From: a virus
Virus record (IMG/VR): IMGVR_UViG_3300045988_071562
Coordinates: 1 to 64,000 of that record
Length of the DNA stretch: 64,000 nucleotides
Reading direction: 5' to 3' (one strand)
The notes under the pieces were generated by a model that saw nothing but the letters and a program-made list of their open reading frames with translations, did no database searches and was not told the DNA's origin. A program made the position numbers and the translations under genes. Of the stretch, positions 6,268-45,537 are shown piece after piece (within the stretch, counting starts at the first letter, position 1; each line of letters starts with the position of its first letter).

Positions 6268-6474
6268 TTAATTCAACTGATTTTTATTGATATAGTCTTC
6301 AATTGCCTTAATGTTTGCCGAAAGCCCATCGTCAAAAATGAGAAAATTTCCTTTCTCGTTCTGGCTCAAAACCTTTCCACTTTCGGTATCAATCGTTGAG
6401 TAGGTAAAGGCGATTCTATCGCCCTCTCCTGTTGACAGTTTCATAAATGATGTAAGCTTTTTAATCACGCTCAT
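6268..6474 (-). CDS. hypothetical small protein
   Basis: 68 aa, overlapping the Tal stop by 4 nt, which suggests translational coupling. Confidence 0.4.
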   Translation of the reverse strand: MSVIKKLTSFMKLSTGEGDRIAFTYSTIDTESGKVLSQNEKGNFLIFDDGLSANIKAIEDYINKNQLN

Positions 6475-9400
6475 AATAATTCTCCTTCCATTTCTTGAAT
6501 TAGTTTTTCTCTTTCCGAGAACATTTCATTCTCAATGTCGTTCAATCTAAAATTAACTTCCCTATCTTCTTTTCCGGCATTAAAGCGTATAAATTCTTTA
6601 TTTTTCTGCTTTGCTTTCAGCTCCCACGCAAAATGCAAGCCTGGTGTTCCTTTTACCTTGAAATAAGTATTTGTCTTTTCAGCTATCCATGTTTGTCCCT
6701 CTCCTTCATTCTGTAAGAACACATAATACTCGATTCCTGTGTCGGTCGATTCCTGAAATATATCATCAATCATAATGATTGCGATTCCGTCATCTCCGAT
6801 TACGCCACCGCCAAAATCTCCCAGAGTTGGAGTTGGAGTCTCGTAGCAGTAAAATAGCTGTTCTCCATAGTTTTCAGTGTCAGCTATTATGGATTTTGTT
6901 CCAGAAACCTTAAAATCGCCAAAAATACTAACATCTGAATTGAATTGTGTTCTTCCCAGATAATGTTTTGAACCGTCTGTAAAGCCACTTTCTGTTGTTG
7001 TATTATGTGGTGTTAAATTTAATGAGTTAGCGTAAGAGGATGCAATACCACTTGCGCTGTATTTAATAAATTGTCCTTGTGCATCCATAGCAAGCATTGA
7101 TGGAGCGTTATATTCATTTCCTACGGAAATCTGTAGGGTTCCATTTTTTTTATTATAAATTCTGTTGTTTTGAATCGTAAATCCGCCTATAGTGGCTCCA
7201 ATTGCCGCAAGCTCATTCAAGGACATTTTTTCAGCCGTGACCGCCTTAGCATCTAATTTTTCTGTGGTAATAGAACCAGCTGCTAGAGCATTAGCGGCTA
7301 TGCTCAACGCTTTAATAAATTGTCCATTTACATAAATGTTTCCGTTTTCGTCTAAATAAATTCCCTGTGCCTTGCCACCATTGGTAAGCTTGCTGAAAAT
7401 ATCGACTTGTGTCTGTCCATCGACAGCTGATTTTGCTGAGCTATTAGCAATCTCATCGACCGTCTTTCCTTGTAGCGAAAAAGTCTTTGGAGCTAGAATA
7501 ACATTTCCGTTGCTGTCGATTTCTAAAGTCACATTATTGTCGTCATCAATAACTTTCAGTCCTCGACCATTGATTCTCTCACCAGCAAGCAGTCCAGCCA
7601 GAATATATTTTGCATTAACGTATACTTTTCCATCTTTGATATAGATTCCCTGTTCAGTGCCGCCTTTTGTGAGTTTATTGAACACTTCATCCTGTCCAAG
7701 ACTGGTATCATACTTATCAATTGCATTTTTAATATCGTCTTTGTCTGCATACTTGAAATCAATCCAATCGGATGCGTCAAACGCTCCGCCAACACGATTT
7801 ACAGTGGATGTTTTGAGGGAAGCCTTTCCTTCACTATTGGTTGTCACCCACAAGTCACCTTCGTAATATGGCGGTTTTGGCTGAACCATATAGACAGATG
7901 ACTTCCCATCTATCTTGTCTAACAGCTCATTTGGTATGGATTGTGGTTGCCAAATACCGGATTTGTAAATCCATTGAGTGTTATCAGAAGTATTGTGCCA
8001 AAGGTCACCTTCATGCTCTGCTTTCTCTGATTCCCATACCAAGATAATTTCATTCCCGGATTCATCCAGAATCTTGTTTCCGTCAATATCGCACCATGGT
8101 TGTTCCTCTGTTTTTGTCCATTTAAGAGAAGGGTCGTTTGGCTGATACCAAGTTTCAATTTTTCCATCAATCTGTGTTTTTAAAGAATTAAGAGAATCTT
8201 TAAAAACGCCATTGATAAATAAATCTAAAGAACTATCATCTGTGTATTTTGAAGCCTTTTCCCAATCTGAAGCAGAATAAGAACCGCTTGCTCTGGCAAC
8301 TTTACATCTCATCAAATCACCATTAGAGCCTTGTGTCCATAAGTCTCCAATGTCATAAGGTGGCTCTGGCTGAACTACGAATACTCTGCGCTTATGATCT
8401 GCCGTATCTTGCGCTTTTTCTGCGGCGGCAAGTGCTAACGTGATATCGGTATCTTGTACCAATTGCCATTTCCAAGTTGCCCCATCTTGCATAAAACGGT
8501 ATGCATATCCCTTGGATTTCCAGTAAAATAAATCACCCTCATGTTTCTTTCGCTCTTCGTTTGTAGTCCATCCAGAAGCCGGGATATTCTGTAAGGTCGG
8601 TTCATAGTCATAAAAAAAAGTCTCAATCTGTCCGTCGATTTGAGACTGTAAATTATTGATATCAGTTGTGTATGTATTGCTTATAAAATTATTTACTTCT
8701 GTTTCTGCTTTTTCCTTTGCAATTGCATTAACATCTTTTCCTTTGATTTGTACAGAATCTGCATTAATAATAACCCTTCCTGTTGTTACATCAACCAGGA
8801 AAGTTATATTTCCGTCTTTGTCAATTGCTTTAATAGTTCCTGTATTAATCCAGTCAGCATTAATACCTGTAGCAGTAAGAATTCTGGCAATCACATCACC
8901 ATCAACAGTCATACCACCATTCCAATGTTGTCCGCCATCTGTAGAAACAGCCCACGCTTCCGCAGTCATTTTCCATACAATATCAGAATCGGATAACTGC
9001 GGCTTATTATGAAGATAATAGATGTTGCTTCCGTCCGGCTGTGTTTCTACTGTCGTGTATGTTCCAGAAGATTCCGCAAGGCGTTGCGATAATTCTTCCA
9101 GTGCCTTTTCTCTGGCGGTACGTTCATCTCTTAAATTCTTTTTGTTTTCTGCCTGTACTTGTTGATTAAGGGTATATTGTTTCTGCTTATTCCTAGATAC
9201 GCTTTTAGCACTGCATTCAAGTTGCTCAAATGTGCCTGGATTCAAAGTAACAGAAGTTAGGAAGCTCTTATACTGTTTCCCGTTTCTGTCGGAAATCTCA
9301 ATGGTGTCACCAGCTTCCCATGCTATATTAGTCAATGCGCCTGTAGTAAATGGTCTGAATTTTAGCCCCACGCACCTGTCTGCGATAATCTGGCAGATTT

Positions 9401-10340
9401 TCTCCCCGGAGCCCTCTTGAATTAGCTTATTATCACTGATTTCGATAACATAGCCAGTTTTCCCCGACTGATATGTTTTCGCTTCATTTTTAGAAGAATT
9501 TTCAACGTATTCTGCAACTTTTATGCCTGTTATTTCAACATCATACAACCATGGTGTGAATCCATTCGTATCTATGGCTGTAATACCCTTTTGCATAACA
9601 GTGATAATCTGTGCGCCAGCGGTATCTAAGATGTCTTTCCCTTCAATATCATTCCATGGTACTTCTGCCTTATTATAAAAATTTTCCGGTACTTCATTTT
9701 TGTACCAGTCAAGGCATAATCTGCCGTATGCATCTGTTTTCGCCCACTGGCAGCCCATCTGTGCTACCCATGCAATTACCTGTCGGAAAGTAATGCTGCT
9801 ATCATCTGGTCGATTCTGGATTACAAAATCATCGTTATCAAATCTTGTTGATTGCAGTGTTACTCCGCACACCTCGCAAGCATCCTGGATGATCTGTAAT
9901 CTAGTTGCCGGATAAGTCAGCTTACTTTCTGAATAATCACGATCAAATAATCGCATATAATCTTCGCATGTGAGGTTGATTATAGCTGTACTCTGGTACG
10001 GTGCATCTGTTACTGTCATGGTACAGATACGGATTTTCTCAATACCTGTAGATAATTCCATTCCGATATAGCAAACCACTCTTGCTCCATCCCAGATATA
10101 ATCTGAAAATTCACCAGAAAAGTTGTTGATCTGCAATGTCAGCTTATTTACGATAGCTGCGCCGATATCAAAAGAACCGCTTTGCGATACTGCATCCTCA
10201 AATTTAAAACCATTAGACCATAAATCTTTGTCGGTAATGGATAATGTGCTTCCGTCTGTAAAGGTAAAATCTGCATATTTCAGATAGTTACGGTTCCCGC
10301 TATTCTGCTGTTCTTTAAATTCCGTTGATAAATTTCGCAT
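6471..10340 (-). CDS. tail-associated protein (Tal / phage minor structural protein, prophage-tail N-terminal region) with long fibre-like C-terminus
   Basis: 1289 aa. The N-terminal ~220 aa (FRQVIAWVAQMGCQWAKTDAYGRL) resemble siphovirus Tal N-domains. A coiled coil, tandem modules and a C-terminal globular domain follow. Confidence 0.8.
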   Translation of the reverse strand: MRNLSTEFKEQQNSGNRNYLKYADFTFTDGSTLSITDKDLWSNGFKFEDAVSQSGSFDIGAAIVNKLTLQINNFSGEFSDYIWDGARVVCYIGMELSTGIEKIRICTMTVTDAPYQSTAIINLTCEDYMRLFDRDYSESKLTYPATRLQIIQDACEVCGVTLQSTRFDNDDFVIQNRPDDSSITFRQVIAWVAQMGCQWAKTDAYGRLCLDWYKNEVPENFYNKAEVPWNDIEGKDILDTAGAQIITVMQKGITAIDTNGFTPWLYDVEITGIKVAEYVENSSKNEAKTYQSGKTGYVIEISDNKLIQEGSGEKICQIIADRCVGLKFRPFTTGALTNIAWEAGDTIEISDRNGKQYKSFLTSVTLNPGTFEQLECSAKSVSRNKQKQYTLNQQVQAENKKNLRDERTAREKALEELSQRLAESSGTYTTVETQPDGSNIYYLHNKPQLSDSDIVWKMTAEAWAVSTDGGQHWNGGMTVDGDVIARILTATGINADWINTGTIKAIDKDGNITFLVDVTTGRVIINADSVQIKGKDVNAIAKEKAETEVNNFISNTYTTDINNLQSQIDGQIETFFYDYEPTLQNIPASGWTTNEERKKHEGDLFYWKSKGYAYRFMQDGATWKWQLVQDTDITLALAAAEKAQDTADHKRRVFVVQPEPPYDIGDLWTQGSNGDLMRCKVARASGSYSASDWEKASKYTDDSSLDLFINGVFKDSLNSLKTQIDGKIETWYQPNDPSLKWTKTEEQPWCDIDGNKILDESGNEIILVWESEKAEHEGDLWHNTSDNTQWIYKSGIWQPQSIPNELLDKIDGKSSVYMVQPKPPYYEGDLWVTTNSEGKASLKTSTVNRVGGAFDASDWIDFKYADKDDIKNAIDKYDTSLGQDEVFNKLTKGGTEQGIYIKDGKVYVNAKYILAGLLAGERINGRGLKVIDDDNNVTLEIDSNGNVILAPKTFSLQGKTVDEIANSSAKSAVDGQTQVDIFSKLTNGGKAQGIYLDENGNIYVNGQFIKALSIAANALAAGSITTEKLDAKAVTAEKMSLNELAAIGATIGGFTIQNNRIYNKKNGTLQISVGNEYNAPSMLAMDAQGQFIKYSASGIASSYANSLNLTPHNTTTESGFTDGSKHYLGRTQFNSDVSIFGDFKVSGTKSIIADTENYGEQLFYCYETPTPTLGDFGGGVIGDDGIAIIMIDDIFQESTDTGIEYYVFLQNEGEGQTWIAEKTNTYFKVKGTPGLHFAWELKAKQKNKEFIRFNAGKEDREVNFRLNDIENEMFSEREKLIQEMEGELL
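7740..8650 (-). repeat. intragenic tandem duplication (~155-aa module, two copies) in Tal
   Basis: QIDGQIETFFYDYEP...HEGDLFYW...PPYDIGDLWTQG...ASDWEKASKYTDD parallels QIDGKIETWYQPNDP...HEGDLWHN...PPYYEGDLWVT...ASDWIDFKYADKDD. Boundaries are approximate. Confidence 0.6.
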
Positions 10341-11571: not shown

Positions 11572-11604
11572 TTTATTTTCCTCCTGTGTAATCCGCGTAT
11601 CCTG

Positions 11605-12342
11605 TTAAAACATTCTTTCCTGTGCGTTCTCGTTGTCAATCAGTTCTTCCAGATAAATCGGTGGCTTATAATCTTCAACCAATTTTACCGCTTTCTCGCA
11701 CTGTTTCCGTTTGATTGCCTTATATGTAGTCACGCCAAACTGTCGGCGCACCTCATTGTGAATATCTCTGTACAGTTTCGCTCTCAGAGAGCCATTTTTA
11801 TAGGCATTGCTGGACTTTCCGCCCAAGACCTTTGTTCCTTTTGATTTCACGGCATTTGTCACCTTGTCCATCTCTACGCCAAGAAGCGGTAAATCCTGTT
11901 TGAAATCTTCCAATTCCTGTTTCACGGTGTCAACTTTCTGCTCTACCTGGGTTACTCGCTTGTCTACTACGATAACTGCCTGTAATTCTTTGGAGATTCC
12001 AGAAAGAACTGGATAATCATAGGTTCCCGTCTTTCTAATGGATGGGAGTACTTCTTTTGTAACCCACGACTTAAATTTCTTTGCGGATTCTAACTTGCTT
12101 CCGAAAATAAGGGCGTAAAGACCGGATTCGTTGATTACCGTTACATCTCTTTTCTGACCTGCAATCGTGATTTGCGATGTCAGCTTATCGTCAAAGTCTA
12201 CATGCTTTCCGATAGCATCCGCAGTATTTTTATATCCAAGTGCCGTTGCTACATCTTTTCCAGCAAACCAAGGCTCTCCGTCAATCATAGTTGTTCTGAT
12301 ATTTCCAAATTCTGGATTATTAAAAATCTGTAATTCGTTCAT
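11605..12342 (-). CDS. antirepressor, Bro-N N-terminal domain plus shared C-terminal module
   Basis: FGNIRTTMIDGEPWFAGKDVATALGY...SGLYALIFGSKLESAKKFKSWVTKEVLPSIRKTG is Bro-N-like. The C-terminal ~95 aa are paralogous to those of 12769-13530. Confidence 0.8.
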   Translation of the reverse strand: MNELQIFNNPEFGNIRTTMIDGEPWFAGKDVATALGYKNTADAIGKHVDFDDKLTSQITIAGQKRDVTVINESGLYALIFGSKLESAKKFKSWVTKEVLPSIRKTGTYDYPVLSGISKELQAVIVVDKRVTQVEQKVDTVKQELEDFKQDLPLLGVEMDKVTNAVKSKGTKVLGGKSSNAYKNGSLRAKLYRDIHNEVRRQFGVTTYKAIKRKQCEKAVKLVEDYKPPIYLEELIDNENAQERMF

Positions 12343-12374
12343 ATAGAAAATCCCTCCAATTCAAGAAAAAATAG

Positions 12375-12468
12375 TTGACCCATGGAGGTATATTGTAGTA
12401 ATATTTACATATACCTTTTTGGTGTGGGTATCCGTCAACTTTCCTAGGGCTAGCGGATACCCATTTTC
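12375..12468 (+). ncRNA. putative short plus-strand RNA unit (promoter plus ~58-nt transcript) between RHH and antirepressor genes
   Basis: TTGACC (12375-12380), 18 nt, TAATAT (12399-12404). Then a 9-bp hairpin GGGTATCCG/CGGATACCC (12426-12462) and ATTTT. Confidence 0.35.
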
Positions 12469-12470
12469 AG

Positions 12471-12647
12471 TTATTCTCCGATTTCTTCGTCAATCTTTTC
12501 GTTTAGCCATGCGGTCTTTGTCTGACCTTTTTCTTTCAGTTTTTTATCCAATGCTTCGAGTTTTTCTCGTTTCACTGAAACACTAAACTGTCCGATAGTT
12601 TCACGACGCTTTTTAAAGTATTCGGAGCCATCTTTTCTAGCAACCAC
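12471..12647 (-). CDS. ribbon-helix-helix (Arc/CopG-like) regulator, 58 aa
   Basis: Not in the ORF track (<60 aa). GTG start with GAGAGG SD. FSVSVKREKLEALDKKLKEKGQTKTAWLNEKIDEEI fits a beta-alpha-alpha RHH. Confidence 0.55.
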   Translation of the reverse strand: MVARKDGSEYFKKRRETIGQFSVSVKREKLEALDKKLKEKGQTKTAWLNEKIDEEIGE

Positions 12648-12663
12648 AAAATCACCTCTCTTT

Positions 12664-12706
12664 TAGTTGCTAGCAATATAATATAATAGTTGCTAGCAAA
12701 AGTCAA
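12664..12706 (-). promoter_or_regulatory. promoter with two palindromic operators
   Basis: On the minus strand, TTGACT-17-TATTAT. TAGTTGCTAGCAA occurs at 12664-12676 and 12687-12699, and each copy contains the perfect palindrome TTGCTAGCAA. Confidence 0.6.
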
Positions 12707-12768
12707 CTAGATTTTCTATATTTTTGGAAATTTTATTTTTCCTCCTGTGTATCCCTGTGAAAATCTAA

Positions 12769-13530
12769 TTAAAAGAATCTCTGCTGTGCATTTTCTGTAT
12801 CAATTTCATTCTTCAAGAAAACTGGCGGTTTATATTCTCCAATAATCTTGACCGCCTGTTCAACCTGGCTTCTCTTAATTGCCTTGTAGCTTTTGACCTG
12901 GAACTGGTAGCGCAGGTTGGAATGAATGTTACTGTAAACCTTCTGGCGAATGGAACGGCTATTGTAAGCATTGGATTCCTTGCCACCAAGTACCAGTGTT
13001 CCTTTTCTCTTTACGGCTTCCGTGATTTTCTCCGCTTCAATCGGGAGAATCGGTAAATCCATTTTCAAAGTCTCAAACTCTGTCTGAATATCGTCAATCC
13101 GCTTATTCAGTTCTACGTTTCCCTGTGCTAGAAGCTGAATCTGTTCGGGAATAGTCATTGGTACTGGGTGGCGAACTGTTTCTTTTAATTTGTCCTCTAC
13201 TTTGAGAAAATATTGTCTGGCTTGTTCACCTTTGGCGCTCTTTGACTGCATAGAAAGTTTCTTTGCAAAGCTGGCAGAGAGTTTATAATCTTCTCTTTGA
13301 ATAACGCCACCTGTCGGTGTCTCCTCCTCAAGGAAGAGTCGCAAATAATCCTCATTTTCGGTTGCGAAATCATTTTCTGCAATGTTTCTCTTACACCATC
13401 TAGCAAAATTTTGTGGCGCTAACTCAAGAAAAGCATATAACTTTCTGGCAGTAGTCATACCCTCTTCATCAATACCAAGTGCAATCTCAATAGGTGTCTG
13501 GCTTGCTGTGTTAATTGTGATTTCGTTCAT
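12769..13530 (-). CDS. antirepressor, AntA/AntB-type N-domain plus shared C-terminal module
   Basis: QTPIEIALGIDEEGMTTARKLYAFLELAPQNFARWCKRNI...FAKKLSMQSKSAKGEQARQYF. The C-terminal module is GGKESNAYNSRSIRQKVY...YKAIKRSQVEQAVKIIGEYKPP. Confidence 0.75.
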   Translation of the reverse strand: MNEITINTASQTPIEIALGIDEEGMTTARKLYAFLELAPQNFARWCKRNIAENDFATENEDYLRLFLEEETPTGGVIQREDYKLSASFAKKLSMQSKSAKGEQARQYFLKVEDKLKETVRHPVPMTIPEQIQLLAQGNVELNKRIDDIQTEFETLKMDLPILPIEAEKITEAVKRKGTLVLGGKESNAYNSRSIRQKVYSNIHSNLRYQFQVKSYKAIKRSQVEQAVKIIGEYKPPVFLKNEIDTENAQQRFF

Positions 13531-13566
13531 ATATAAAAATCCTCCTGTGAAATTTTAATTTTTTAT

Positions 13567-13675
13567 TTGCAAACAGGAGGTATACAGTGTTATAATTTGT
13601 ATAGCCTCCTATTTGGTGGCAGAAGCATTTAAGAGATTCTTAACTTTGGTCGGTCGGGAATCTCTTATTTTTTAT
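13567..13675 (+). ncRNA. putative short plus-strand RNA unit (promoter plus ~70-nt transcript) between RHH and antirepressor genes
   Basis: TTGCAA (13567-13572), 18 nt, TGtTATAAT (13588-13596). Then a 9-bp hairpin AAGAGATTC/GAATCTCTT (13631-13666) and ATTTTTTAT. Confidence 0.4.
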
Positions 13676-13856
13676 CACTCTGGAACATTTTATCATACTG
13701 CATTTCAATCCCAATTCTTACAATTTCAGACCTTGTAGTAGCCTTTTCAAGTGCAACAGCATCCAGTTTTTGAAGAGTTTTCTTGTCTAATCTTGTCCTT
13801 AACATATAGTCTTTTGGATTGTCAGTTAATTTTGTTCCGATTTTCATAGCAGCCAT
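13665..13856 (-). CDS. ribbon-helix-helix (Arc/CopG-like) regulator
   Basis: 63 aa; LRTRLDKKTLQKLDAVALEKATTRSEIVRIGIE. Confidence 0.65.
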   Translation of the reverse strand: MAAMKIGTKLTDNPKDYMLRTRLDKKTLQKLDAVALEKATTRSEIVRIGIEMQYDKMFQSDKK

Positions 13857-13877
13857 TTATATCACCTCTCTTTCTTC

Positions 13878-13920
13878 GTTGCTACAATCCTAGTATAGTG
13901 TGTAGCAACAATCCTGTCAA
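13878..13920 (-). promoter_or_regulatory. promoter TTGACA-17-TATACT with an overlapping inverted repeat
   Basis: GTTGCTACA (13878-13886) and TGTAGCAAC (13901-13909) bracket the -10 (13897-13892). The -35 is at 13920-13915. Confidence 0.6.
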
Positions 13921-14010: not shown

Positions 14011-14160
14011 ATGAGAAAAAGAAAGAAAATAGACAAGATAACAGGAAAAATAAAATGTCCGAAATGGTCTTGCAGAAGTGCTAATGTCCAGATAATCGGT
14101 CATGGTCTGTTTTCTACCAAATATCAGTGTAGAGATTGCGGACGAATATTTAAAGGGTAA
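14011..14160 (+). CDS. 49-aa zinc-ribbon miniprotein
   Basis: AGAGGGGG SD. CPKWSC...CRDCG four-Cys pattern. Below the track cutoff. Confidence 0.4.
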   Translation: MRKRKKIDKITGKIKCPKWSCRSANVQIIGHGLFSTKYQCRDCGRIFKG

Positions 14161-14185
14161 AAAGGCTAGGGAGAAATCCCTAGCC
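14159..14185 (-). terminator. intrinsic terminator for the 14195-15703 gene
   Basis: GGCTAGGGA-tttc-TCCCTAGCC then T5, read on the minus strand. Confidence 0.6.
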
Positions 14186-18406: not shown

Positions 18407-19096
18407 TCATGCGGCAATTTTATTAATTCCTTTATTCAGAATAAATTCTTTTATTTCGTTATATCCCCAGCCATATCCGACTAATGCGCTCACAAGCATT
18501 TCTGCATTCTGGATTTTCACCAAATCTTCTTCTGAAAAATAATCTCTCATACTTTCTTTTTTTGTGATTCCGAATTCCTCTCTTAGTTGCTTGGCGTTTT
18601 TACCAAATATGGACTTGTAAATAACGTCCGTATATGTAGAATAGGCATGTCCGTGCATTCTTTCATTTTCAGAAGATTGCTGGATTGCCTTTGTCAATGC
18701 CTGTCTTACTGCTATTCCTTTAGCTCGTTCAAGTTCTGCTGCACGCTGCTTTTTAAAAGCAATTTTTAAGGATTGTTCGCAACCAATAAAATAGTTTCTT
18801 GCTTGTTCTCCTCTTTCAGATTTTGATAGCATTGAAAGTTTTTTGGCGAAATGGGCAGTTATCTTATAATCAACAGTTTTATTACCCTCGACATAAATGT
18901 CGAACCCCCAATAGTCTTCATTTTCTACCGCAAATGAATTGTCGATAATATTTGTTTTCGCCCATCTTGAAAATTGTCCCTGTGCAAGTCCTAAAAATGA
19001 ATATAGTTTTCTTGCAGTAGTCATGCCTTCTTCGTCAATCCCAAGTGCAATCTCAATAGGTGTCTGTTCACTTGTTATCAAAACTTCATTTTCCAT
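18407..19096 (-). CDS. antirepressor, AntA/AntB-type N-domain with a different (KilAC-like) C-terminus
   Basis: The N-terminal 45 aa are nearly identical to 12769-13530 (QTPIEIALGIDEEGMTTARKLYSFLGLA). AAGGAGG SD. Confidence 0.75.
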   Translation of the reverse strand: MENEVLITSEQTPIEIALGIDEEGMTTARKLYSFLGLAQGQFSRWAKTNIIDNSFAVENEDYWGFDIYVEGNKTVDYKITAHFAKKLSMLSKSERGEQARNYFIGCEQSLKIAFKKQRAAELERAKGIAVRQALTKAIQQSSENERMHGHAYSTYTDVIYKSIFGKNAKQLREEFGITKKESMRDYFSEEDLVKIQNAEMLVSALVGYGWGYNEIKEFILNKGINKIAA

Positions 19097-19122: not shown

Positions 19123-19195
19123 TAAAATAAAAAGAGCCGCCAAGTAAGATAAAAATTCCTCAAAATCGAGAAATATTAATTTCTTCTTAGCGGCT
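19123..19195 (-). terminator. leader hairpin plus U-tract between the promoter and the antirepressor gene
   Basis: Read on the minus strand: GAGCCGCUAAG...CUUGGCGGCUC (11 bp, ~41-nt interior), then UUUUUAUUUU, then the SD. Confidence 0.4.
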
Positions 19196-19232
19196 CAAAA
19201 ATCAAGACCGTGTGTACTTCTTCATTGAAGAA

Positions 19233-19261
19233 ATTATACCACACAATCAGTCAAAAATCAA
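19233..19261 (-). promoter_or_regulatory. promoter TTGATT-17-TGgTATAAT
   Basis: The -35 (19261-19256) overlaps the tape-measure stop codon. The extended -10 ends at 19233. Confidence 0.55.
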
Positions 19262-22200
19262 TATGCCGGGGATGGTTTGAAACGGCTATCCGTATCATTC
19301 TGGGCTTTTGTTACTGCTTTTGCAATCTCGCTTCCATCCAGAATAATGCTGTTCATAATGTACTGCGGATTCTTGTTTCCGCTGTTCATACTCATTGCCA
19401 TTGCAACTCCTTGTGCTACTGCTTTTGCCATTTCTTCTTTTGTAAGTCCCATGCTTCCGTCTGAGCTGGAAACAATGCTGTCTGCGATCTTCTTCATTGT
19501 TCGTGGGTTTTCCAGTGGAAGAACGGCTTCAGAACCAGCTTCACCGATACCGATTACCTGTGCGCCATTAAAAAGACCACCTTTGGCGTACCAATTAGGC
19601 TTGTAAACTGGTGTAGAACTGGTTTTTCCACCTCCAAGATCATGTTTTCTCCACTTTGAAATATAATAAGTCAGAGTCGGTAAATGTACTTGTTTCATGC
19701 CATCAGCAAATGATTGAGCAGTTTCCCGACCAATTGATGTAAGATTAACATTAAATAGCCTTTTAATTTTATCCGAAATCCCAGACAAATTAGATTCTGT
19801 GTAGGTTTTCATTTTTCCAGTTTCCGTGTCAACTTTACCAGAAGCCTTTTCCCAAATCTGGTTTGTATTGATCAGAACGGAAGACCAATAGCTTTGAATA
19901 GTGGTCATAACCTTACCCATTATATCTTTGGTATCGGTGTCCATGGTTCCGAGAGCTGTCGATACAGCACTTGCAGAATTTCCCCAATTGGTTTTAGAGT
20001 TGGTTTCAACATCATCATTCGTGTTCTTTATCTTTGACCAAATGGAAGGCATTGTGCTTTCTGTTCTTTTTTTCATTCCAGCCATTGCAGTGCTTACGGC
20101 AGTATTGGCGAGACCAAAACCAGTTTTTGTCTTGGATGATACGGATTCGGATGCTGTTGCAACTGATTTGCTCATTGTTGATGAAGCTTTCGGAACATCT
20201 TCTGAAAAAGCTTTTATAACTTTTCTTGTGTCAATTCCCATCTCTGCCATTTTATCCATCAATGCTTGGAATGCGGCTCTAGCTGTTGCACCAGATAATT
20301 CTTGCTGTTGAAGGACAGTACTTAATTCATCAAACTGCGTTGGAGTGATTACTGCTTGATATGAAAGTCTTTCCAGTGCAGATTTCGCATTATCAAACTC
20401 AGTTCCCATTGTTCCAATGTATTCATTAATATTTCCGATATGGGAATTTGTAGAGGTATCGGATTCCTCCATTGCCTGTTTTAATGCTTGCTTAAATGTA
20501 TCGGAAGAAATTCCAAGATTTTCAAGTGATGTTTCTACAGTTTGGAGCTGTCCATCAAAATCAAATGCATTGTCTTTCACATTTTTCAAATCGCCACCAA
20601 GCCCAATAAATTTATCCCCAGAAACTCCAGTTTGGTCTTCAAGTATTTTCAAGGCTTTTCTGACAACTTCAAAATCGTTGAATGCGTCCGCTGTGGAATC
20701 TTTAAAGTCCATAGCTTTTTTTACTTGTCCAAGTCCTTCCATGACAAATGCGGTTGCGCCCAAATTGGTTGCGTATCCCCAAAATCCTTGGAATTGTCCA
20801 CCAGCTGTTTGTGCGACGTCACCAAGATTTTTTATCTTTTCAGCAAGGGTAGTAAATCCTCCATTTCCTGCGGATTCTGCCGCATCCCCTAAATCTTTTA
20901 TTGCTTCTTTTGCTCCACTCGTGCCATCTCCAAGGACATCTGCTAATTTTTCAGCAATGAGATCAGCATTTTCTTTGGCAATAATTTTTCCGCCAATGTG
21001 ATCAATAAGGTTCCATGCAAGTTCTCCAATTCCGCTTACTTTAAGAACATTTACGACAAGAAAGGCTTTTCCAAGAATATCAACAAGACTTCCAACAAGC
21101 GGATGGTCTTCTTTTATTCCATCCACCAATCCGTTAAAGGCACTTGATAAACCACCAAGAATCAAATCAGCCGCAGTACTAAGTATTTCGCCCCAAGGCA
21201 ACTCTCCTAAGAATGTTCCAACGCCTTGTCCAAACTCATAGAAAGTGTCTTTTGTAAGCGTATTTTTCAACGCCGTACACAGGTGAGATATGAAATCTCC
21301 AAGTGCTTGTCCATTTTCTTTCCAGTTTGTTTTTTTCAAGAAAGTAGAAATTCCCTCTGTGATATTATTAGTAAGTTCATCCCAGTTTACAGTTTTGGTA
21401 AACGCAGCCAAGCTTCTAAACGCTCCATTTAAAATTCCAGATAAAGAATCTGCAATATCCTTCATGGAAATTTTGGACACAGCGCCATTTAAAGCTTTTC
21501 CAAGTGAACTACCAAGCTTATCCCAACCAGTTACACCAGCGCCGTCCTCTTCTGACATACGTTTTACAAATCCAGATAGAATTTTCCAGGAAATCATAAA
21601 CTTATTTCCAAGCAATTCACCCAGATTAGTCCAGTTGATTTCATCCAGTGCGCCGATTAACCCATCACCAATATTTCTGCCGATTAATCCAAAATCAATA
21701 CCGCCATCACCAATAAGCTGATTAAGAGTATTTACAGCTGTGTTGATTCCCGTCCCGATAGTTCTTCCAAGCAAGTCAAAATCAAGTCTGGTATTTAATG
21801 AATTGAATGCTCTTGTAAATGCGTCTGTAAACTCAGTTATTTTCGGGGCAACATTTTTCCAGTTAATAACCTCATACACCTTGCTCATTCCGAGATTAAG
21901 CATATCGGCAATAGTAGTTCCTACACCCTCCCAGTCTTTCGCCAGGAATGCTTTTCTAATTTTGGAAGCCCATTTGTTAATAGGTGTTTCATCGACAGTC
22001 AAAACTTCGTCCAAGGAATCTTGTATTCCTGCAAAGCTATCAGCCAAATCGCCAAGTCCAGAACCAAGGCTTTTAGATGCAGTCCCGGAATCGTTTGAGT
22101 TATCAGCAAGCTGATTTAATTGGTCGAATGGTAATACAGAAAGTGCCTTTTTCAGCTTCTTTGCAGATGATGTAGCGTCATCCAATCCAGAAGAAGCATC

Positions 22201-24156
22201 ATCCACAGCCGTTTCAATTCCACCCAGATCAGATACAACATCACTAACACCAGTCTGTGAACCTTTAAGCTTCTTTCCCATCAATACATACATGAAGTTA
22301 CGGAACACATTCGCAGCTTGCATAAGCTTTGCCATGAGAGCGTTAAGTGCTTGAATAGCAGGAAGAATACCAGCAATCAAACCTTGCCCGATTACTGCGG
22401 AAAGCGACTGGAAATTCAGAGTGAGTAAACGAACCTGGTTTGCCCAGGTGCCGCTTGTCCTGGCGAAATCCCCTTGCACATCTCCTGTAACTGACATTAA
22501 ATAGTTGTATCGAAGAGCAACTTTTTCAGCTTGGGACATTGCGTTATAAGATGTTGTAATTCCCCTTGAAAGGGCATAAGCCTCCATATTTGCAACGGAT
22601 AAATTAATACCCAATTGTCTTAAAGGCTCAATTTCCCCGGAAATTCCAGCGCGTATTTTCTGAAAAGCAGTATCGGTATCAATGTTGTAAAATGATGCAA
22701 TATCCCCGGCTAATCCAGCAAGAGAAATTGACATTTTAGAAGCTGCATCTTGCGCAACACCAGATGATTTCATCATTGCCATCATGGTTCCAGAATATTG
22801 CTTTGCTGCCAATTCGGATAATCCAAATTGTTCTTTTGCCGTAGAAGCAAATTTATAAGCTTTATCAGACATGCTGCCAAACGCAACATCTACAACGTTT
22901 TCAACCTCTGTAATTTGAGAGCCTAAATCAACTGCGCTTCTTCCAAAGTCAACAATACCTTGGATTGCCTTAAATCCAATTGCAGTTTTAAAGAGTGCGC
23001 TCAGATTAAAGGATGCAGTTTTCAGTCCAGAGCTACCGCTTCCAAGACGCTGAAACCCACCAATGATAGTTTTTATGCCACCACCAATTTTAGAAGCAGT
23101 TTTACTTACAAGATTTCCAAGACTCAATGTACCAGATGATAACTTAGAAAAAGCACTGGATATGGAATTTGTTGCAGTATTCACCTTGCCGCCAGCACTT
23201 GCCAACTGCGCCAGTGCTTCCGTCATGCGGATGGTATTCTCACTGATTTTTGGAGCATTTTCCATTACTTTGAAAAACTTCTTTGTTTCTTGCGCCAGAT
23301 TTTGCAATTGTCCAGCGGTCTGGCTAGTCTTGTTTCCAGCACTTGCCAGTCTTCCGATGGATTGTACAAATAAATTAGTTGGTTCAGAAACATCACCAAC
23401 TCTGGATAGTGTTTTTATTACGGATTTTAATTGTTTTCCAAGCCCAGGAAGCGCAGCTTCCACCTGTCTTGCCTTATCACCAGCATTTACAAGTTTTTGC
23501 AAAGAAGAAACAAAACGGTTGGTGCTGGAAGATACATCTGGGAGATCAGAAAAGCTTTTCATGGAATTTGCAATTTTATCCAAAGTGGTTGTGTCAAAAT
23601 TATCCGTTTTGACTTCCATTAGCCTTTTGACTGCATTAATTCCTTGGATTACTTTTGAACCACTAAAATCAACAGTATTAAGAACAGACATAGAGTGTGC
23701 CACTTTCTGTATACTGTTAATTGTTTGCTGTGCATTTGAAGAATCAACTTTTCCAAGCTTTTCAATAGCTTTTGTTACTGAATTAATATTTTTAGCATCT
23801 ATTTTGGGTACAGAAATATTCTGTAAACCGCTGATAGACAATAAACCAGACGCAAAATCTTTAAGTGATTTCCCACTTCCATCCAATGCTGAAAAATTTA
23901 CACGTGATATGCTGGTGAGTTGCTTTGTAAGACCACCAAGATTAGGTAAGGAAACTCTAACACCATTTAATGTTTTTATGGATGCAGATACTCTTCCTAT
24001 TTCTCTGGCATAATGGCGCAATCCACCTGTATTCAGATTCTTAAATGAACTGTTTACGTTCAAAAGTTTTCTTGATAAGTTCTCAAGTGACCGAACAGCT
24101 TTTGCCGTACTACTTCTAACCTGTAAATCAAGGGTATCAATGGTGTTATCCGCCAT
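19258..24156 (-). CDS. tail tape measure protein
   Basis: ~1630 aa, alpha-helical and Ala/Ser/Gly-rich. It follows the G/GT chaperones. AGGAGGG SD before MADNTIDT. Confidence 0.9.
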   Translation of the reverse strand: MADNTIDTLDLQVRSSTAKAVRSLENLSRKLLNVNSSFKNLNTGGLRHYAREIGRVSASIKTLNGVRVSLPNLGGLTKQLTSISRVNFSALDGSGKSLKDFASGLLSISGLQNISVPKIDAKNINSVTKAIEKLGKVDSSNAQQTINSIQKVAHSMSVLNTVDFSGSKVIQGINAVKRLMEVKTDNFDTTTLDKIANSMKSFSDLPDVSSSTNRFVSSLQKLVNAGDKARQVEAALPGLGKQLKSVIKTLSRVGDVSEPTNLFVQSIGRLASAGNKTSQTAGQLQNLAQETKKFFKVMENAPKISENTIRMTEALAQLASAGGKVNTATNSISSAFSKLSSGTLSLGNLVSKTASKIGGGIKTIIGGFQRLGSGSSGLKTASFNLSALFKTAIGFKAIQGIVDFGRSAVDLGSQITEVENVVDVAFGSMSDKAYKFASTAKEQFGLSELAAKQYSGTMMAMMKSSGVAQDAASKMSISLAGLAGDIASFYNIDTDTAFQKIRAGISGEIEPLRQLGINLSVANMEAYALSRGITTSYNAMSQAEKVALRYNYLMSVTGDVQGDFARTSGTWANQVRLLTLNFQSLSAVIGQGLIAGILPAIQALNALMAKLMQAANVFRNFMYVLMGKKLKGSQTGVSDVVSDLGGIETAVDDASSGLDDATSSAKKLKKALSVLPFDQLNQLADNSNDSGTASKSLGSGLGDLADSFAGIQDSLDEVLTVDETPINKWASKIRKAFLAKDWEGVGTTIADMLNLGMSKVYEVINWKNVAPKITEFTDAFTRAFNSLNTRLDFDLLGRTIGTGINTAVNTLNQLIGDGGIDFGLIGRNIGDGLIGALDEINWTNLGELLGNKFMISWKILSGFVKRMSEEDGAGVTGWDKLGSSLGKALNGAVSKISMKDIADSLSGILNGAFRSLAAFTKTVNWDELTNNITEGISTFLKKTNWKENGQALGDFISHLCTALKNTLTKDTFYEFGQGVGTFLGELPWGEILSTAADLILGGLSSAFNGLVDGIKEDHPLVGSLVDILGKAFLVVNVLKVSGIGELAWNLIDHIGGKIIAKENADLIAEKLADVLGDGTSGAKEAIKDLGDAAESAGNGGFTTLAEKIKNLGDVAQTAGGQFQGFWGYATNLGATAFVMEGLGQVKKAMDFKDSTADAFNDFEVVRKALKILEDQTGVSGDKFIGLGGDLKNVKDNAFDFDGQLQTVETSLENLGISSDTFKQALKQAMEESDTSTNSHIGNINEYIGTMGTEFDNAKSALERLSYQAVITPTQFDELSTVLQQQELSGATARAAFQALMDKMAEMGIDTRKVIKAFSEDVPKASSTMSKSVATASESVSSKTKTGFGLANTAVSTAMAGMKKRTESTMPSIWSKIKNTNDDVETNSKTNWGNSASAVSTALGTMDTDTKDIMGKVMTTIQSYWSSVLINTNQIWEKASGKVDTETGKMKTYTESNLSGISDKIKRLFNVNLTSIGRETAQSFADGMKQVHLPTLTYYISKWRKHDLGGGKTSSTPVYKPNWYAKGGLFNGAQVIGIGEAGSEAVLPLENPRTMKKIADSIVSSSDGSMGLTKEEMAKAVAQGVAMAMSMNSGNKNPQYIMNSIILDGSEIAKAVTKAQNDTDSRFKPSPAY

Positions 24157-24203
24157 TTTCAATTTCCCTCCTTTTTGCATAAAAAAATAAAGGGCAGACA
24201 AGA

Positions 24204-44464: not shown

Positions 44465-44536
44465 TAGAAACAACAGGAATCGAACCTGTGTCACATGATA
44501 TTGGATATCATTGCTCTACCACTGAGCTATGTTTCT
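44465..44536 (-). tRNA. tRNA-Trp (anticodon CCA)
   Basis: Cloverleaf read by eye: AGAAACA/TGTTTCT acceptor, GCTC-AGTGGTA-GAGC, ATGAT-ATCCAAT-ATCAT, ACAGG-TTCGATT-CCTGT. No encoded CCA. Confidence 0.85.
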
Positions 44537-44758
44537 TTTTCATCCTCAAACGCTAAACAAGATGATTTTTTTAGAATCCCCGACTATCACTCCTCACGGG
44601 CATTGGTCTTATCTCTCTAAAAAGTTTTTGCACAAGATCGCTAGTGAGTTGCGTCTATATGCCTGCACGAACGCACACAAACAAATCCGCATTTATGTGC
44701 AAGAACTAACAATAGCTATGCTAAAGTCAGATTTCCTATCTACACTTGGTAGATAGAA

Positions 44759-44830
44759 TTGCAGGAGACGGATTCGAACCGCCGTTTCCATGGATATGAG
44801 CCATGTGAGATTCCACTTCTCTATCCTGCA
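44759..44830 (-). tRNA. tRNA with anticodon CAT (Met or lysidine-Ile2)
   Basis: TGCAGGA/TCCTGCA acceptor, GAGA-AGTGGAA-TCTC, CATGG-CTCATAT-CCATG, GGCGG-TTCGAAT-CCGTC. Confidence 0.8.
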
Positions 44831-45178
44831 AGAACCCGGAAGAACCGGGTTAGCAATAGGTTTATCGTGTTATGCTTTCCACTATCCAGTTTTCTTTATT
44901 TGCGGCACGCATACTGGCAACCCTAGCGGCTTTTTGATAACCGTGGTATGCTCCACGAGTATTTTTATGCACAACTTTAATGGCTTATGGTTCGCATCTT
45001 TTGAAAACTCCTTTAATCAGCGTGCGCTGCGCTGATTTCTTTAACTCCAAGATGCATTCCAGCTGGGAAACCAGATCCATTTAGGCTACGCCGTATCGCA
45101 CCTATAATTTACCTGATCCACACGCTCAACTGGAAGTTTTTTCCACACATATTACGGATGAATGGCATTTAGAAGAAA

Positions 45179-45251
45179 TGGAAACTCTGGGATTCGAACC
45201 CAGGACTTACGGCTTATGAGGCCGTTGCTCTTACCGCTGAACTAAGCTTCC
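45179..45251 (-). tRNA. tRNA with anticodon CAT (Met or lysidine-Ile2)
   Basis: GGAAGCT/AGTTTCC acceptor (one G-U pair), GTTC-AGCGGTAA-GAGC, ACGGC-CTCATAA-GCCGT, CTGGG-TTCGAAT-CCCAG. Confidence 0.8.
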
Positions 45252-45465
45252 TGAGATACCAGTTGGCAATACTGGTAACCAAACTGGCACTGTTACAGTT
45301 CTTAACCACCAACTATAACAAAGGTTTTCTGAAATACTCCTGATACTTCAGATACGCCTTCCGGGATATTTGAAGTCCCTTTAATCAGTCTCAGTTAGAC
45401 TAGAAGGCTAGAGGTGTTTCTTATGAAAAAAAAGAATATTTTTGCAGCATATTAACTACTGCAAA

Positions 45466-45537
45466 CTGGGCTAGTTGGATTTGAACCAACGAATTGTGGA
45501 GTCAAATTCCACGGCCTTACCACTTGGCGATAGCCCA
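45466..45537 (-). tRNA. tRNA-Gln (anticodon TTG)
   Basis: U1-A72 and G73 as in bacterial tRNA-Gln. GTGGA-ATTTGAC-TCCAC, GTTGG-TTCAAAT-CCAAC. Confidence 0.8.

Follow-up and report, generated by a model that had tools for sequence, protein, structure and literature searches.

How is the expression of antirepressor-type genes controlled in a gut-bacterial phage that carries several of them? The question is raised by two tandem gene modules at positions 11,605 to 13,920 of IMG/VR virus record IMGVR_UViG_3300045988_071562, of which positions 1 to 64,000 were analysed; this whole stretch of 64,000 nucleotides (nt), a temperate siphovirus-type genome, is called the window below. On the minus strand, the genes RHH1, ANT1, RHH2 and ANT2 follow one another in this order, each small repressor gene lying directly upstream of, and co-oriented with, an antirepressor-type gene that we call its cargo. 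A preliminary description of the window, made by a model from the sequence alone, had proposed that the gap within each pair also encodes a short RNA on the opposite strand. This core arrangement (small repressor gene, opposite-strand RNA, antirepressor-type gene, twice in tandem) is backed here by a conserved antisense promoter, by covarying stems, by wobble pairs that are specific to one strand and by a one-sided U-tract. Taken as a whole, the locus is likely to combine an autoregulated small repressor gene with a countertranscript of about 70 nt and a leader switch that would mask the Shine-Dalgarno (SD) sequence of the cargo gene or attenuate its transcription, a reading drawn from sequence and comparison.

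The antisense promoter and hairpin H1

Homologues of the 58-amino acid (aa) protein encoded by RHH2 were found at 77 IMG/VR loci and at 40 loci in bacterial genomes, the genomes being those of Lachnospiraceae, Oscillospiraceae, Anaerotignum, Roseburia, Agathobaculum, Bulleidia and Gemella. The gaps downstream of these homologues provided a comparative set of 39 non-redundant sequences from IMG/VR, together with 32 non-redundant sequences from bacterial genomes that served as a hold-out set. At nearly all of the 58-aa loci, the ~120 nt past the stop codon show the same order of elements on the mRNA strand, namely an A-rich run, a hairpin (H1), a C/A-rich spacer (often ACACCA), a second, long hairpin (H2) and the SD sequence of the next gene. 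The same layout is seen downstream of the 63-aa ribbon-helix-helix (RHH) family to which the product of RHH1 belongs.

The opposite strand of these gaps carries a promoter with strongly conserved positions. In the 39 IMG/VR gaps the antisense -35 element begins with TTG (T in 38, T in 39 and G in 37), and the -10 element keeps its first two positions (T in 38, A in 39) and its last two (A in 37, T in 39). A TG extension is present in about 30 of the 39, the hexamers are 17 nt apart in 29 gaps and 18 nt apart in 10, and the distance from the -10 element to the stop codon is 60-77 nt in most gaps. No sequence conservation is seen in the stretch that separates the hexamers and doubles as the 3' arm of H2. 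About 29 of the 32 bacterial-genome gaps have the same promoter. We take this promoter to be real because a conserved RNA loop would not require a TTG at promoter spacing beyond the loop, and on these comparative grounds the antisense RNA genes are very likely real.

Both window gaps have the elements first described for them: a plus-strand promoter with an 18-nt spacer, then a hairpin with a 9-bp stem, a loop of 18-19 nt and a T-tract. Promoter-like hexamers by themselves occur at chance level (9 found, against 7.0 +/- 2.9 in shuffled sequences). A composite search for TTGnnn-17/18-TAnnnT followed by a stem of at least 8 bp, a loop of 10-24 nt and a T tail returned only these two sites in 64 kb on both strands, compared with ~0.2 in shuffled windows. 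With a start inferred 7 nt past the -10 element for antisense RNA 1, the predicted RNAs begin at 13603 and 12411, which is 56 and 53 nt from the respective SD sequences, and run away from them; the proposal that they stop short of the antirepressor SD thus holds. Across the family, the predicted antisense RNA has a median length of 71 nt.

On paper, these plus-strand units also contain open reading frames (ORFs), at 12419-12586 (55 aa) and 13613-13738 (41 aa), and could be read as encoding small peptides or a type I toxin-antitoxin pair instead of a regulator of the cargo. This is extremely unlikely. Both ORFs have TTG starts and no SD site, both read through the terminator, the underlying sequence is not conserved as protein in relatives, and the units have no match to known toxin families. 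The small plus-strand ORFs were rejected as coding sequences on these grounds.

The identity of the strand that folds was assessed from the base pairs of H1. Helices were parsed per sequence with our own Python helix finder, in which G.T and A.C were penalised equally, so the G.U/A.C asymmetry is unbiased. On the mRNA strand, the 43 distinct H1 stems contain 423 Watson-Crick pairs, 26 A.C mismatches and 2 G.U pairs, and the hold-out set gave 29 A.C and 1 G.U. As an A.C mismatch on the mRNA strand is a G.U pair on the opposite strand, the wobbles of both sets together favour the antisense strand by 55 to 3, which indicates that H1 has been kept as a helix of the antisense RNA and is slightly weakened in the mRNA. 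Variable stems fall out of register in plain MAFFT gap alignments, and tool-based pair counts were made only on a gapless H1 subset and on the RNAalifold core of H2. When 14 H1 hairpins were aligned without gaps by MAFFT, the share of paired cells was 99.2% for the antisense and 92.9% for the sense orientation. Double changes are seen at 9 of 9 pairs in these 14 rows, while slid partners pair in only 27-51% of cells. The covariation score of 1.07 compares with 0.28 in shuffles and was reached by none of 500. The sequence past the hairpin is equally one-sided: the 8 nt that follow H1 hold a mean of 6.05 U on the antisense strand (at least 5 U in 71 of 75) and 0.85 U on the sense strand (at least 5 U in 1 of 75), so H1 appears to be a one-way terminator. 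A covariance model of H1 alone scored the module 2 hairpin at 41.6 bits on the plus strand and 25.8 bits on the minus strand, with an identical sequence among its seeds; it missed H1 of module 1, the model being too short for sensitivity.

These data bear on two other explanations of the gap. In the first, the inverted repeats would serve the small repressor, CI or another protein as DNA operators and would not be RNA structures. The repeats do bracket a -10 element as true operators do at the repressor promoters, and GGAGGTATA...TATACCTCC-like arms are common to both window gaps. We nevertheless find this reading very improbable, as the stems are almost wholly different among relatives and yet complementary (43 distinct H1 stems), a strand asymmetry between G.U and A.C has no meaning for duplex DNA, and the repressors already have lineage-specific palindromes elsewhere. 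In the second, the leader would be a purely cis-acting switch with no functional antisense RNA, wherein a protein, ribosome traffic or some other signal is sensed by H1 and the leader hairpins H2 and H3, and the promoter-like loop of H2 is an RNA loop motif. H2 and H3 are indeed mutually exclusive structures of the mRNA (see below), and the chance-level frequency of the hexamers in this AT-rich region fits such a view. An RNA loop motif, however, needs no TTG at exactly 17-18 nt beyond the loop, and neither the wobble asymmetry of H1 nor its antisense-side U-tract is what a cis-only switch would give; we regard this alternative as improbable, and prefer a reading with an antisense RNA.

The loops of H1 have a mean length of 18 nt and often carry a CUUUGGnCGG-type motif. 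Many loops among loci L001-L163 have CCnACCAAAG on the mRNA strand, which corresponds to CUUUGGUnGG in the antisense RNA, and in a minority (e.g. L032, L038, L063, L077 and L128) it is the mRNA strand that has this motif. Apparently, a particular loop-loop geometry is preserved and the motif can switch between strands. Only some 40% of H1 loops have a YUNR/UUGG motif, counted on either strand, and the motif is too short for a test.

Alternative pairing of the leader hairpins H2 and H3

The second hairpin, H2, is built around the antisense promoter. Its loop is the reverse complement of TGnTATAAT, and its 3' arm ends in the reverse complement of the TTGnnn -35 element. The wobble pairs of H2 fall on the other strand from those of H1: the 376 Watson-Crick pairs counted on the mRNA strand are accompanied by 14 G.U and 3 A.C (difference from H1, Fisher test 4e-7), and the hold-out set gave 9 G.U and 5 A.C (2.5e-5). 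A plain alignment of the H2 core that includes both window leaders shows double changes at 5 of 7 pairs and one U.G pair that is kept in 9 of 11 rows. Judged by its base pairs, H2 is a helix of the mRNA strand.

Complementarity to the SD region of the cargo gene is a further property of the H2 3' arm and the complement of the -35 element, which jointly would form a third hairpin, H3, with that region. Folds of the 3' half of the leader have a mean z of -3.0 relative to shuffles of the 3' arm, with z below -2 in 76% and the SD fully paired in 78%, and one subgroup has a 10-bp consensus H3. In the window, the pairing is CCUCCUG with CAGGAGG in leader 1 and CCUCCA with UGGAGG in leader 2, so that the flanking bases covary between the two modules. 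H3 of leader 2 is weak as a single sequence (z -1.2) and draws its support from the family. Sequence and comparison together support H2 and H3 as alternative pairings of the same arm. The antisense RNA would start inside the 5' arm of H2, so its pairing would open H2 and free the anti-SD arm.

A further explanation is that the antisense promoter acts mainly by transcriptional interference, through convergent polymerases or promoter occlusion, with H1 merely keeping antisense transcription out of the repressor gene and RNA pairing irrelevant. The two promoters converge at a distance of ~300 bp, and H1, at the stop codon itself, has the look of an efficient one-way terminator, both of which suit interference. 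The antisense transcript, however, covers just ~70 bp of the leader, and interference would leave unexplained the constantly large H1 loop with its frequent CUUUGGnCGG-type motif, the systematic A.C weakening of the mRNA copy of H1 and the complementarity of the H2 3' arm to the SD. We think it unlikely that interference is the main mode of action, and continue with a reading in which the antisense RNA pairs with the leader.

Each module would then be a self-contained expression cassette on the minus strand. A strong sigma-A promoter with two operator half-sites or palindromes around its -10 element would drive the small repressor (a CopG/Arc-type RHH protein for RHH1, probably also an RHH protein for RHH2), which is expected to shut its own promoter, and the same transcript would continue via a leader of ~130 nt into the antirepressor-type cargo gene. 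A constitutive promoter on the opposite strand of the leader would give a countertranscript of ~60-75 nt with a single-stranded 5' tail, the GC-rich, large-loop H1 and a U-tract terminator. In the mRNA, H2 would sequester the pyrimidine-rich 3' arm (CCUCCUG or CCUCCA). We infer that the countertranscript pairs with H1, the C/A-rich spacer and the outer 5' arm of H2, and that the 3' arm thus freed would pair with the cargo SD to form H3, which would block translation and, where it is compact and followed by U's, probably also terminate transcription. The outcome would be a burst of antirepressor on entry into a cell that holds neither repressor nor antisense RNA, followed by shut-off, and in a lysogen a threshold against leaky antirepressor expression. 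The leader-switch mechanism is plausible, and we lean modestly towards it.

Repressor genes, cargo genes and weighing of the evidence

The features of the two modules are collected in Table 1. The genes, the four promoters, the operator repeats and both H1 hairpins lie where the preliminary description had placed them.

Table 1 Features of the two tandem modules, in window coordinates
Feature	Position	Strand	Sequence or product	Basis or remark
RHH1	13665-13856	minus	63 aa	RHH repressor gene, module 1
ANT1	12769-13530	minus	253 aa	cargo gene 1, antirepressor-like; AntA 8e-13 and ORF6C 8e-32 (Pfam; PHROGs matches too)
RHH2	12471-12647	minus	58 aa	small putative repressor gene, module 2
ANT2	11605-12342	minus	245 aa	cargo gene 2, antirepressor-like; Bro-N 6e-27 and ORF6C 3e-30 (Pfam; PHROGs matches too)
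Promoter, module 1	13892-13920	minus	TTGACA-17-TATACT	promoter scan 11/12; kept in relatives including Streptococcus phage Javan367
Operator-like inverted repeat, module 1	13878-13909		GTTGCTACA (13878-13886) and TGTAGCAAC (13901-13909)	repeats flank the -10
Promoter, module 2	12678-12706	minus	TTGACT-17-TATTAT	promoter scan; layout kept in family
Two palindromes, module 2	12667-12676 and 12690-12699		TTGCTAGCAA	one in promoter spacer, the other just past the -10
Promoter, antisense RNA 1	13567-13596	plus	TTGCAA-18-TGtTATAAT	promoter scan; position conserved family-wide
Promoter, antisense RNA 2	12375-12404	plus	TTGACC-18-TAATAT	promoter scan; retains the four most conserved -10 positions of the family
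Predicted antisense RNA 1	13603-13675	plus	~73 nt: 5' tail, H1, U-tract	folding -23.6 kcal/mol, z -3.8
Predicted antisense RNA 2	12411-12472	plus	~62 nt	folding of 12411-12482: -23.4 kcal/mol, z -3.7
H1, module 1	13631-13666	plus	AAGAGATTC/GAATCTCTT, 9-bp stem, 18-nt loop, then ATTTTTTAT	putative terminator and recognition hairpin
H1, module 2	12426-12462	plus	GGGTATCCG/CGGATACCC, 9-bp stem, 19-nt loop, then ATTTTCAG	
H2, leader 1	13575-13610	minus	AGGAGGCUAUAC...GUAUACCUCCU, encloses antisense -10	folding; RNAalifold and pair counts back the core helix
H2, leader 2	12386-12416	minus	AGGUAUAU...AUAUACCU, encloses antisense -10	helix parse and folding
H3, leader 1	13541-13580	minus	CCUCCUG (H2 3' arm) with SD CAGGAGG (13541-13547), then AUUUUUAU	fold of leader 3' half; shuffle z -3.5
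H3, leader 2	12352-12388	minus	CCUCCA with SD UGGAGG (SD 12352-12358) and UCAA/UUGA, then GAUUUUCU	folding

The promoters of both small genes have repeats at fixed places. In all of the 63-aa family the GTTGCTACA...TGTAGCAAC repeat surrounds the -10 element, and it holds the same position in homologues with 42-65% identity. In the 58-aa family, a palindrome of 10-12 bp is invariably present twice, in the spacer and after the -10, and varies by lineage with both copies changing together (e.g. GTAACTAGTTAC, TTACGCGTAA and GTAGCGCGCTAC). This promoter architecture supports autoregulation by both small proteins, and repression of its own promoter is what we expect of each. The operators of the two modules have a common half-site, TTGCTA (TTGCTAGCAA in module 2, GTTGCTACA/TGTAGCAAC in module 1), despite the different protein families, which could reflect cross-talk or coincidence.

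The 63-aa protein can be placed by family. Pfam RHH_1 is matched in 32 of 35 of its homologues (57-73% identity), some of which also have precomputed Pfam matches to PF10723, RepB-RCR_reg, and the protein matches phrog_876, annotated as a repressor, at 5e-12. Its AlphaFold2 (AF2) model has a pLDDT (predicted local distance difference test score) of 81, and the best Foldseek matches, at weak E-values, are almost all RHH proteins, among them CopG of pMV158 (2cpg, 1ea4), Arc, MatP and ParG. By its family, the 63-aa protein is an RHH protein.

The C-terminal module shared by the two cargo proteins is real and larger than the ~95 aa first given for it: the alignment covers 139 residues at 47% identity and corresponds to the ORF6C domain. 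With the further antirepressor-type genes at 46-867 (ORF6N) and 18407-19096 (AntA), the window holds four such genes, as had been counted before. Both modules are situated between the tape-measure gene (19258-24201) and a tail gene (6471-10340), adjoining an HNH endonuclease gene, and a CI-like repressor gene is found at 1568-1960.

Several observations count against the reading set out above, or against parts of it. Helix boundaries were set by our own finder, so the percentage paired leans towards structure, and the sequences compared are related, their counts being not fully independent. The antisense promoter of module 2 is mediocre (9/12, without TG). When the antisense target was blocked in partition function calculations, the mean unpaired probability of the SD fell from 0.46 to 0.05, with a drop in 35 of 35 sequences, a result that is to be read as a consistency check because blocking part of any RNA shifts its pairing. 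In the equilibrium fold of the free window leaders the SD is mostly paired already (unpaired 0.20 in module 1 and 0.12 in module 2), so an ON state would need H2 to fold co-transcriptionally; failing this, duplex cleavage or attenuation may be the chief mode of action of the RNA. Directly past H3, at least 5 U among 8 nt are found in only about half of the family, and H3 as a strict transcription terminator across the family was rejected for this reason; in the half that bears the U-tract, H3 looks like an attenuator terminator. The window H3 hairpins, with loops of 24-26 nt, would make poor terminators; a role in masking the ribosome-binding site is the more cautious interpretation for these leaders.

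The small protein of module 2 adds to these reservations. A search of 33 members of the 58-aa family gave no Pfam match, profile search found nothing relevant among PDB sequences, and the poor AF2 model (pLDDT 62), a coil and then two helices at the expected place, gave no Foldseek match. Aligned to the RHH1 family by hhalign, the protein is in register at a weak probability of 5-13%, and its match to the N-terminal positions 4-37 of the 148 in the NCBIfam NikR profile, also in register, is likewise weak (E = 0.0026). It matches phrog_3896 at 7e-22, and one source labels it a 'CopG-like protein'. It is probably an RHH protein, the fold being weakly indicated, so the earlier assignment of both small genes to this fold is firm for the 63-aa protein and tentative for the 58-aa one. 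Finally, the view that Bro-N/AntA/ORF6C cargo proteins are antirepressors comes mostly from annotation.

Other features of the window were seen beside these genes. A 49-aa ORF with two CxxC pairs (zinc-ribbon-like) at 14011-14160 on the plus strand is divergent from the module 1 promoter and has no family match; it is seemingly not conserved, as the sequence upstream of the module 1 promoter differs in some relatives, and a hairpin near it (~14164-14185) looks like a bidirectional terminator. The AntA gene at 18407-19096 comes without a repressor gene, and has its own promoter TTGATT-17-TGGTATAAT directly after the tape-measure stop codon (~19125-19253, minus strand). A possible attenuator is found in its leader, namely a long hairpin (GAGCCGC...GCGGCTC) with a T-tract behind it; ACTTGGCGG occurs within this hairpin and is seen in the H1 loops of other cassettes as well. 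The stretch at 1089-1276 on the plus strand strongly matches FuFi-1 RNA in Rfam (138.6 bits) and is situated between a cro-like gene and the ORF6N gene at 46-867, on the strand opposite that early operon. We know of no function for FuFi-1 RNA, and its placement beside another antirepressor gene may be informative. Four tRNA genes are clustered at 44465-45537 on the minus strand.

Distribution of the cassette and comparison with known systems

When IMG/VR was searched with the H2 loop sequence alone, 94 distinct contexts were obtained, of which 41 have the -35 element, H1 and the A-run. The ORF that ends at H1 in these contexts is mostly another small protein of the RHH-typical GRPK..NP..IRL..SR.E.IR.GI type, so the RNA unit seems tied to small RHH-type genes generally rather than to one protein family. 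No match to the 58-aa protein was found among GenBank phages by tblastn, and neither small protein was matched by tblastn in 72,556 PLSDB plasmids.

The tandem arrangement is present in the window and is not the rule. Among 46 IMG/VR relatives with RHH1, most run RHH1, ANT1 and then an 83-aa gene and/or HNH, and only a few have RHH2 and ANT2. A sequence of ~20 nt, ACACAGGAGGAAAA(A)TAAAAT, lies 3' of both ANT genes (~12725-12745 and ~11575-11595, minus strand), as expected for an insertion junction, and this common sequence, together with the relatives that carry module 1 only, suggests that module 2 is an inserted or duplicated cassette. Two other loci, L115 (3180-3310) and L041 (3174-3310), have an identical H2/H3 segment, with different H1 hairpins and different repressor families, and their identity apparently includes the beginning of the downstream leader, a pattern that suggests recombination within the cassette.

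A complete cassette was also seen in Streptococcus phage Javan367 (locus L164; MK448740, an S. oralis prophage) at 1400-1790, between the terminase and portal genes. It has the operator GTTGCTACA/TGTAGCAAC, a 59-aa RHH gene whose product is 44% identical to the 63-aa protein, an H1 with an A.C mismatch, an antisense promoter TTGAAA-17-TGATATAAT and an H3 with a T-tract, and it carries as cargo an 82-aa protein, behind which comes a "putative antirepressor". This cassette could be a tractable experimental system.

The cargo of the family is varied. Of 55 cargo genes, all but two of those with a Pfam match encode an antirepressor-type domain (ORF6N in 7, Rha in 5, AntA in 3 and Bro-N in 2), the exceptions being one helix-turn-helix protein and one Lar. 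The remaining genes, ~35 of the 55, encode recurrent small proteins of 60-125 aa with no known family. Three recurrent families of 65-91 aa, with no Pfam match, are candidate small antirepressors because they stand in the antirepressor position, and can be told apart by their N-termini: MxEIEKMKRYIERTK... (L018, L026, L028, L138, L148 and L139), MKYDLSKLYWDYIQE... (L015, L129 and L137) and MSLxxELLELE... (L134, L135, L144, L146 and L147).

The modules had been likened to the immI region of phage P22, and the likeness is one of logic. As in P22, a small repressor gene (for the RHH protein Arc in P22; here RHH by family for RHH1 and probably RHH for RHH2) comes first in the operon and the antirepressor gene follows, and an antisense RNA, ~69 nt long in P22 and predicted here from sequence and comparison, starts from a promoter in the gap between them. 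Membership in the P22 system does not follow, for several reasons. P22 sar covers the ant ribosome-binding site, whereas the RNAs here start upstream of the SD and would act via leader rearrangement. There is no divergent second repressor like Mnt, the only divergent ORF being the 49-aa one at 14011-14160. A search of the region with Rfam gave no family at gathering score and nothing sar-like to E = 10. Pfam lists only Bro-N, AntA and ORF6C for the cargo, so that homology to P22 Ant is not indicated, and the hosts here are Firmicutes. The position among late genes is a further likeness: the P22 immI unit has been described as a 'moron' within the late/tail gene region (PMC2629481), and the modules here lie between tape-measure and tail genes.

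The anatomy appears closest to two groups of Gram-positive plasmid systems, the copG-rnaII-repB module of pMV158 and leader switches of the pT181/pIP501 type, and closer to these than to P22. RNAII of pMV158 is intergenic, is complementary to the bases directly 5' of the translation start signals but does not cover these signals, and consists of a single-stranded 5' tail, one GC-rich terminator hairpin and a U-tail (PMC4485353). The predicted RNA here has the same intergenic position, complementarity and parts, and in both cases a CopG-family RHH gene, autoregulated in pMV158 and probably so here, comes first, RHH1 being RHH by family with repeats that flank the -10 as a putative operator. The differences are that the controlled gene here is antirepressor-type or a small phage gene with no assigned role instead of a rolling-circle plasmid initiator, that the RNA is ~70 nt long versus 48 nt with a hairpin loop of 17-19 nt versus 6 nt, and that an explicit H2/H3 alternative pairing with the SD is present.

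Plasmids pT181 and pIP501 use countertranscript-driven attenuation. In these systems and in pAMbeta1, as proposed here, leader structures are mutually exclusive, and 5' antisense pairing would release a 3' segment to form a hairpin just before the start codon, which in about half of the present family is followed by a U-tract. H3 differs in that it includes the SD, so translational masking may be the main effect, and in that its loops in the window are long. The Rfam model ctRNA_pT181 (RF00242) ends in a hairpin, with a 9-bp stem, a 16-nt loop with AAACUUUGGU and then U's, that is similar to antisense RNA 1. Antisense RNA 1 is not a member of that family, scoring 23.6 bits against a gathering score of 56 (E = 6.3), and this sub-threshold match is the sole Rfam resemblance of the region.

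Phages P1 and P7 offer a last comparison. In their secondary immunity region, immI, the small c4 RNA controls an antirepressor operon (icd, ant), as the predicted RNA here would control an antirepressor gene. The c4 RNA is encoded on the same strand as its target and processed from that transcript, acts on icd translation and Rho-dependent polarity, and involves no RHH protein. The RNA predicted here is, by contrast, antisense and accompanied by a small repressor gene, and the Rfam search of the region gave no c4 match.

To our knowledge, the sole textbook cases of RNA-controlled antirepressors are those of enterobacterial phages, P22 sar and P1 c4. We found no description of an antisense-controlled antirepressor in Gram-positive phages in an incomplete literature search, which is absence of evidence only; the arbitrium RNA AimX (preprint) is a different system. 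The P22-type logic is already known, and what appears to be new is the same logic in Firmicutes phages with the anatomy of Gram-positive plasmid copy control. We also put forward, tentatively and at slightly less than even confidence, a broader proposal: that both units are members of a large and so far undescribed family of portable cassettes found in phages and prophages of Firmicutes, that this family shares ancestry or design with CopG/RNAII plasmid modules, and that it subjects antirepressors, and 60-100-aa proteins that could themselves be new small antirepressors, to burst-then-shut-off, thresholded expression, with the A.C mismatch in the H1 target (G.U in the RNA) speeding strand invasion.

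The cassette occurs in phages of Lachnospiraceae, Oscillospiraceae, Streptococcus and Gemella, and seems to move as a unit and to recombine internally. Its comparative signals are unusually clean and make it a candidate for a new RNA family, its recurrent small cargo proteins form a short list of possible antirepressors, and, as modules 1 and 2 use different operators and different RNA stems, the two could serve as a compact set of orthogonal repressor and antisense parts. Because antirepressors decide whether resident prophages stay silent, their control bears on prophage induction and on conflict between phages in the gut.

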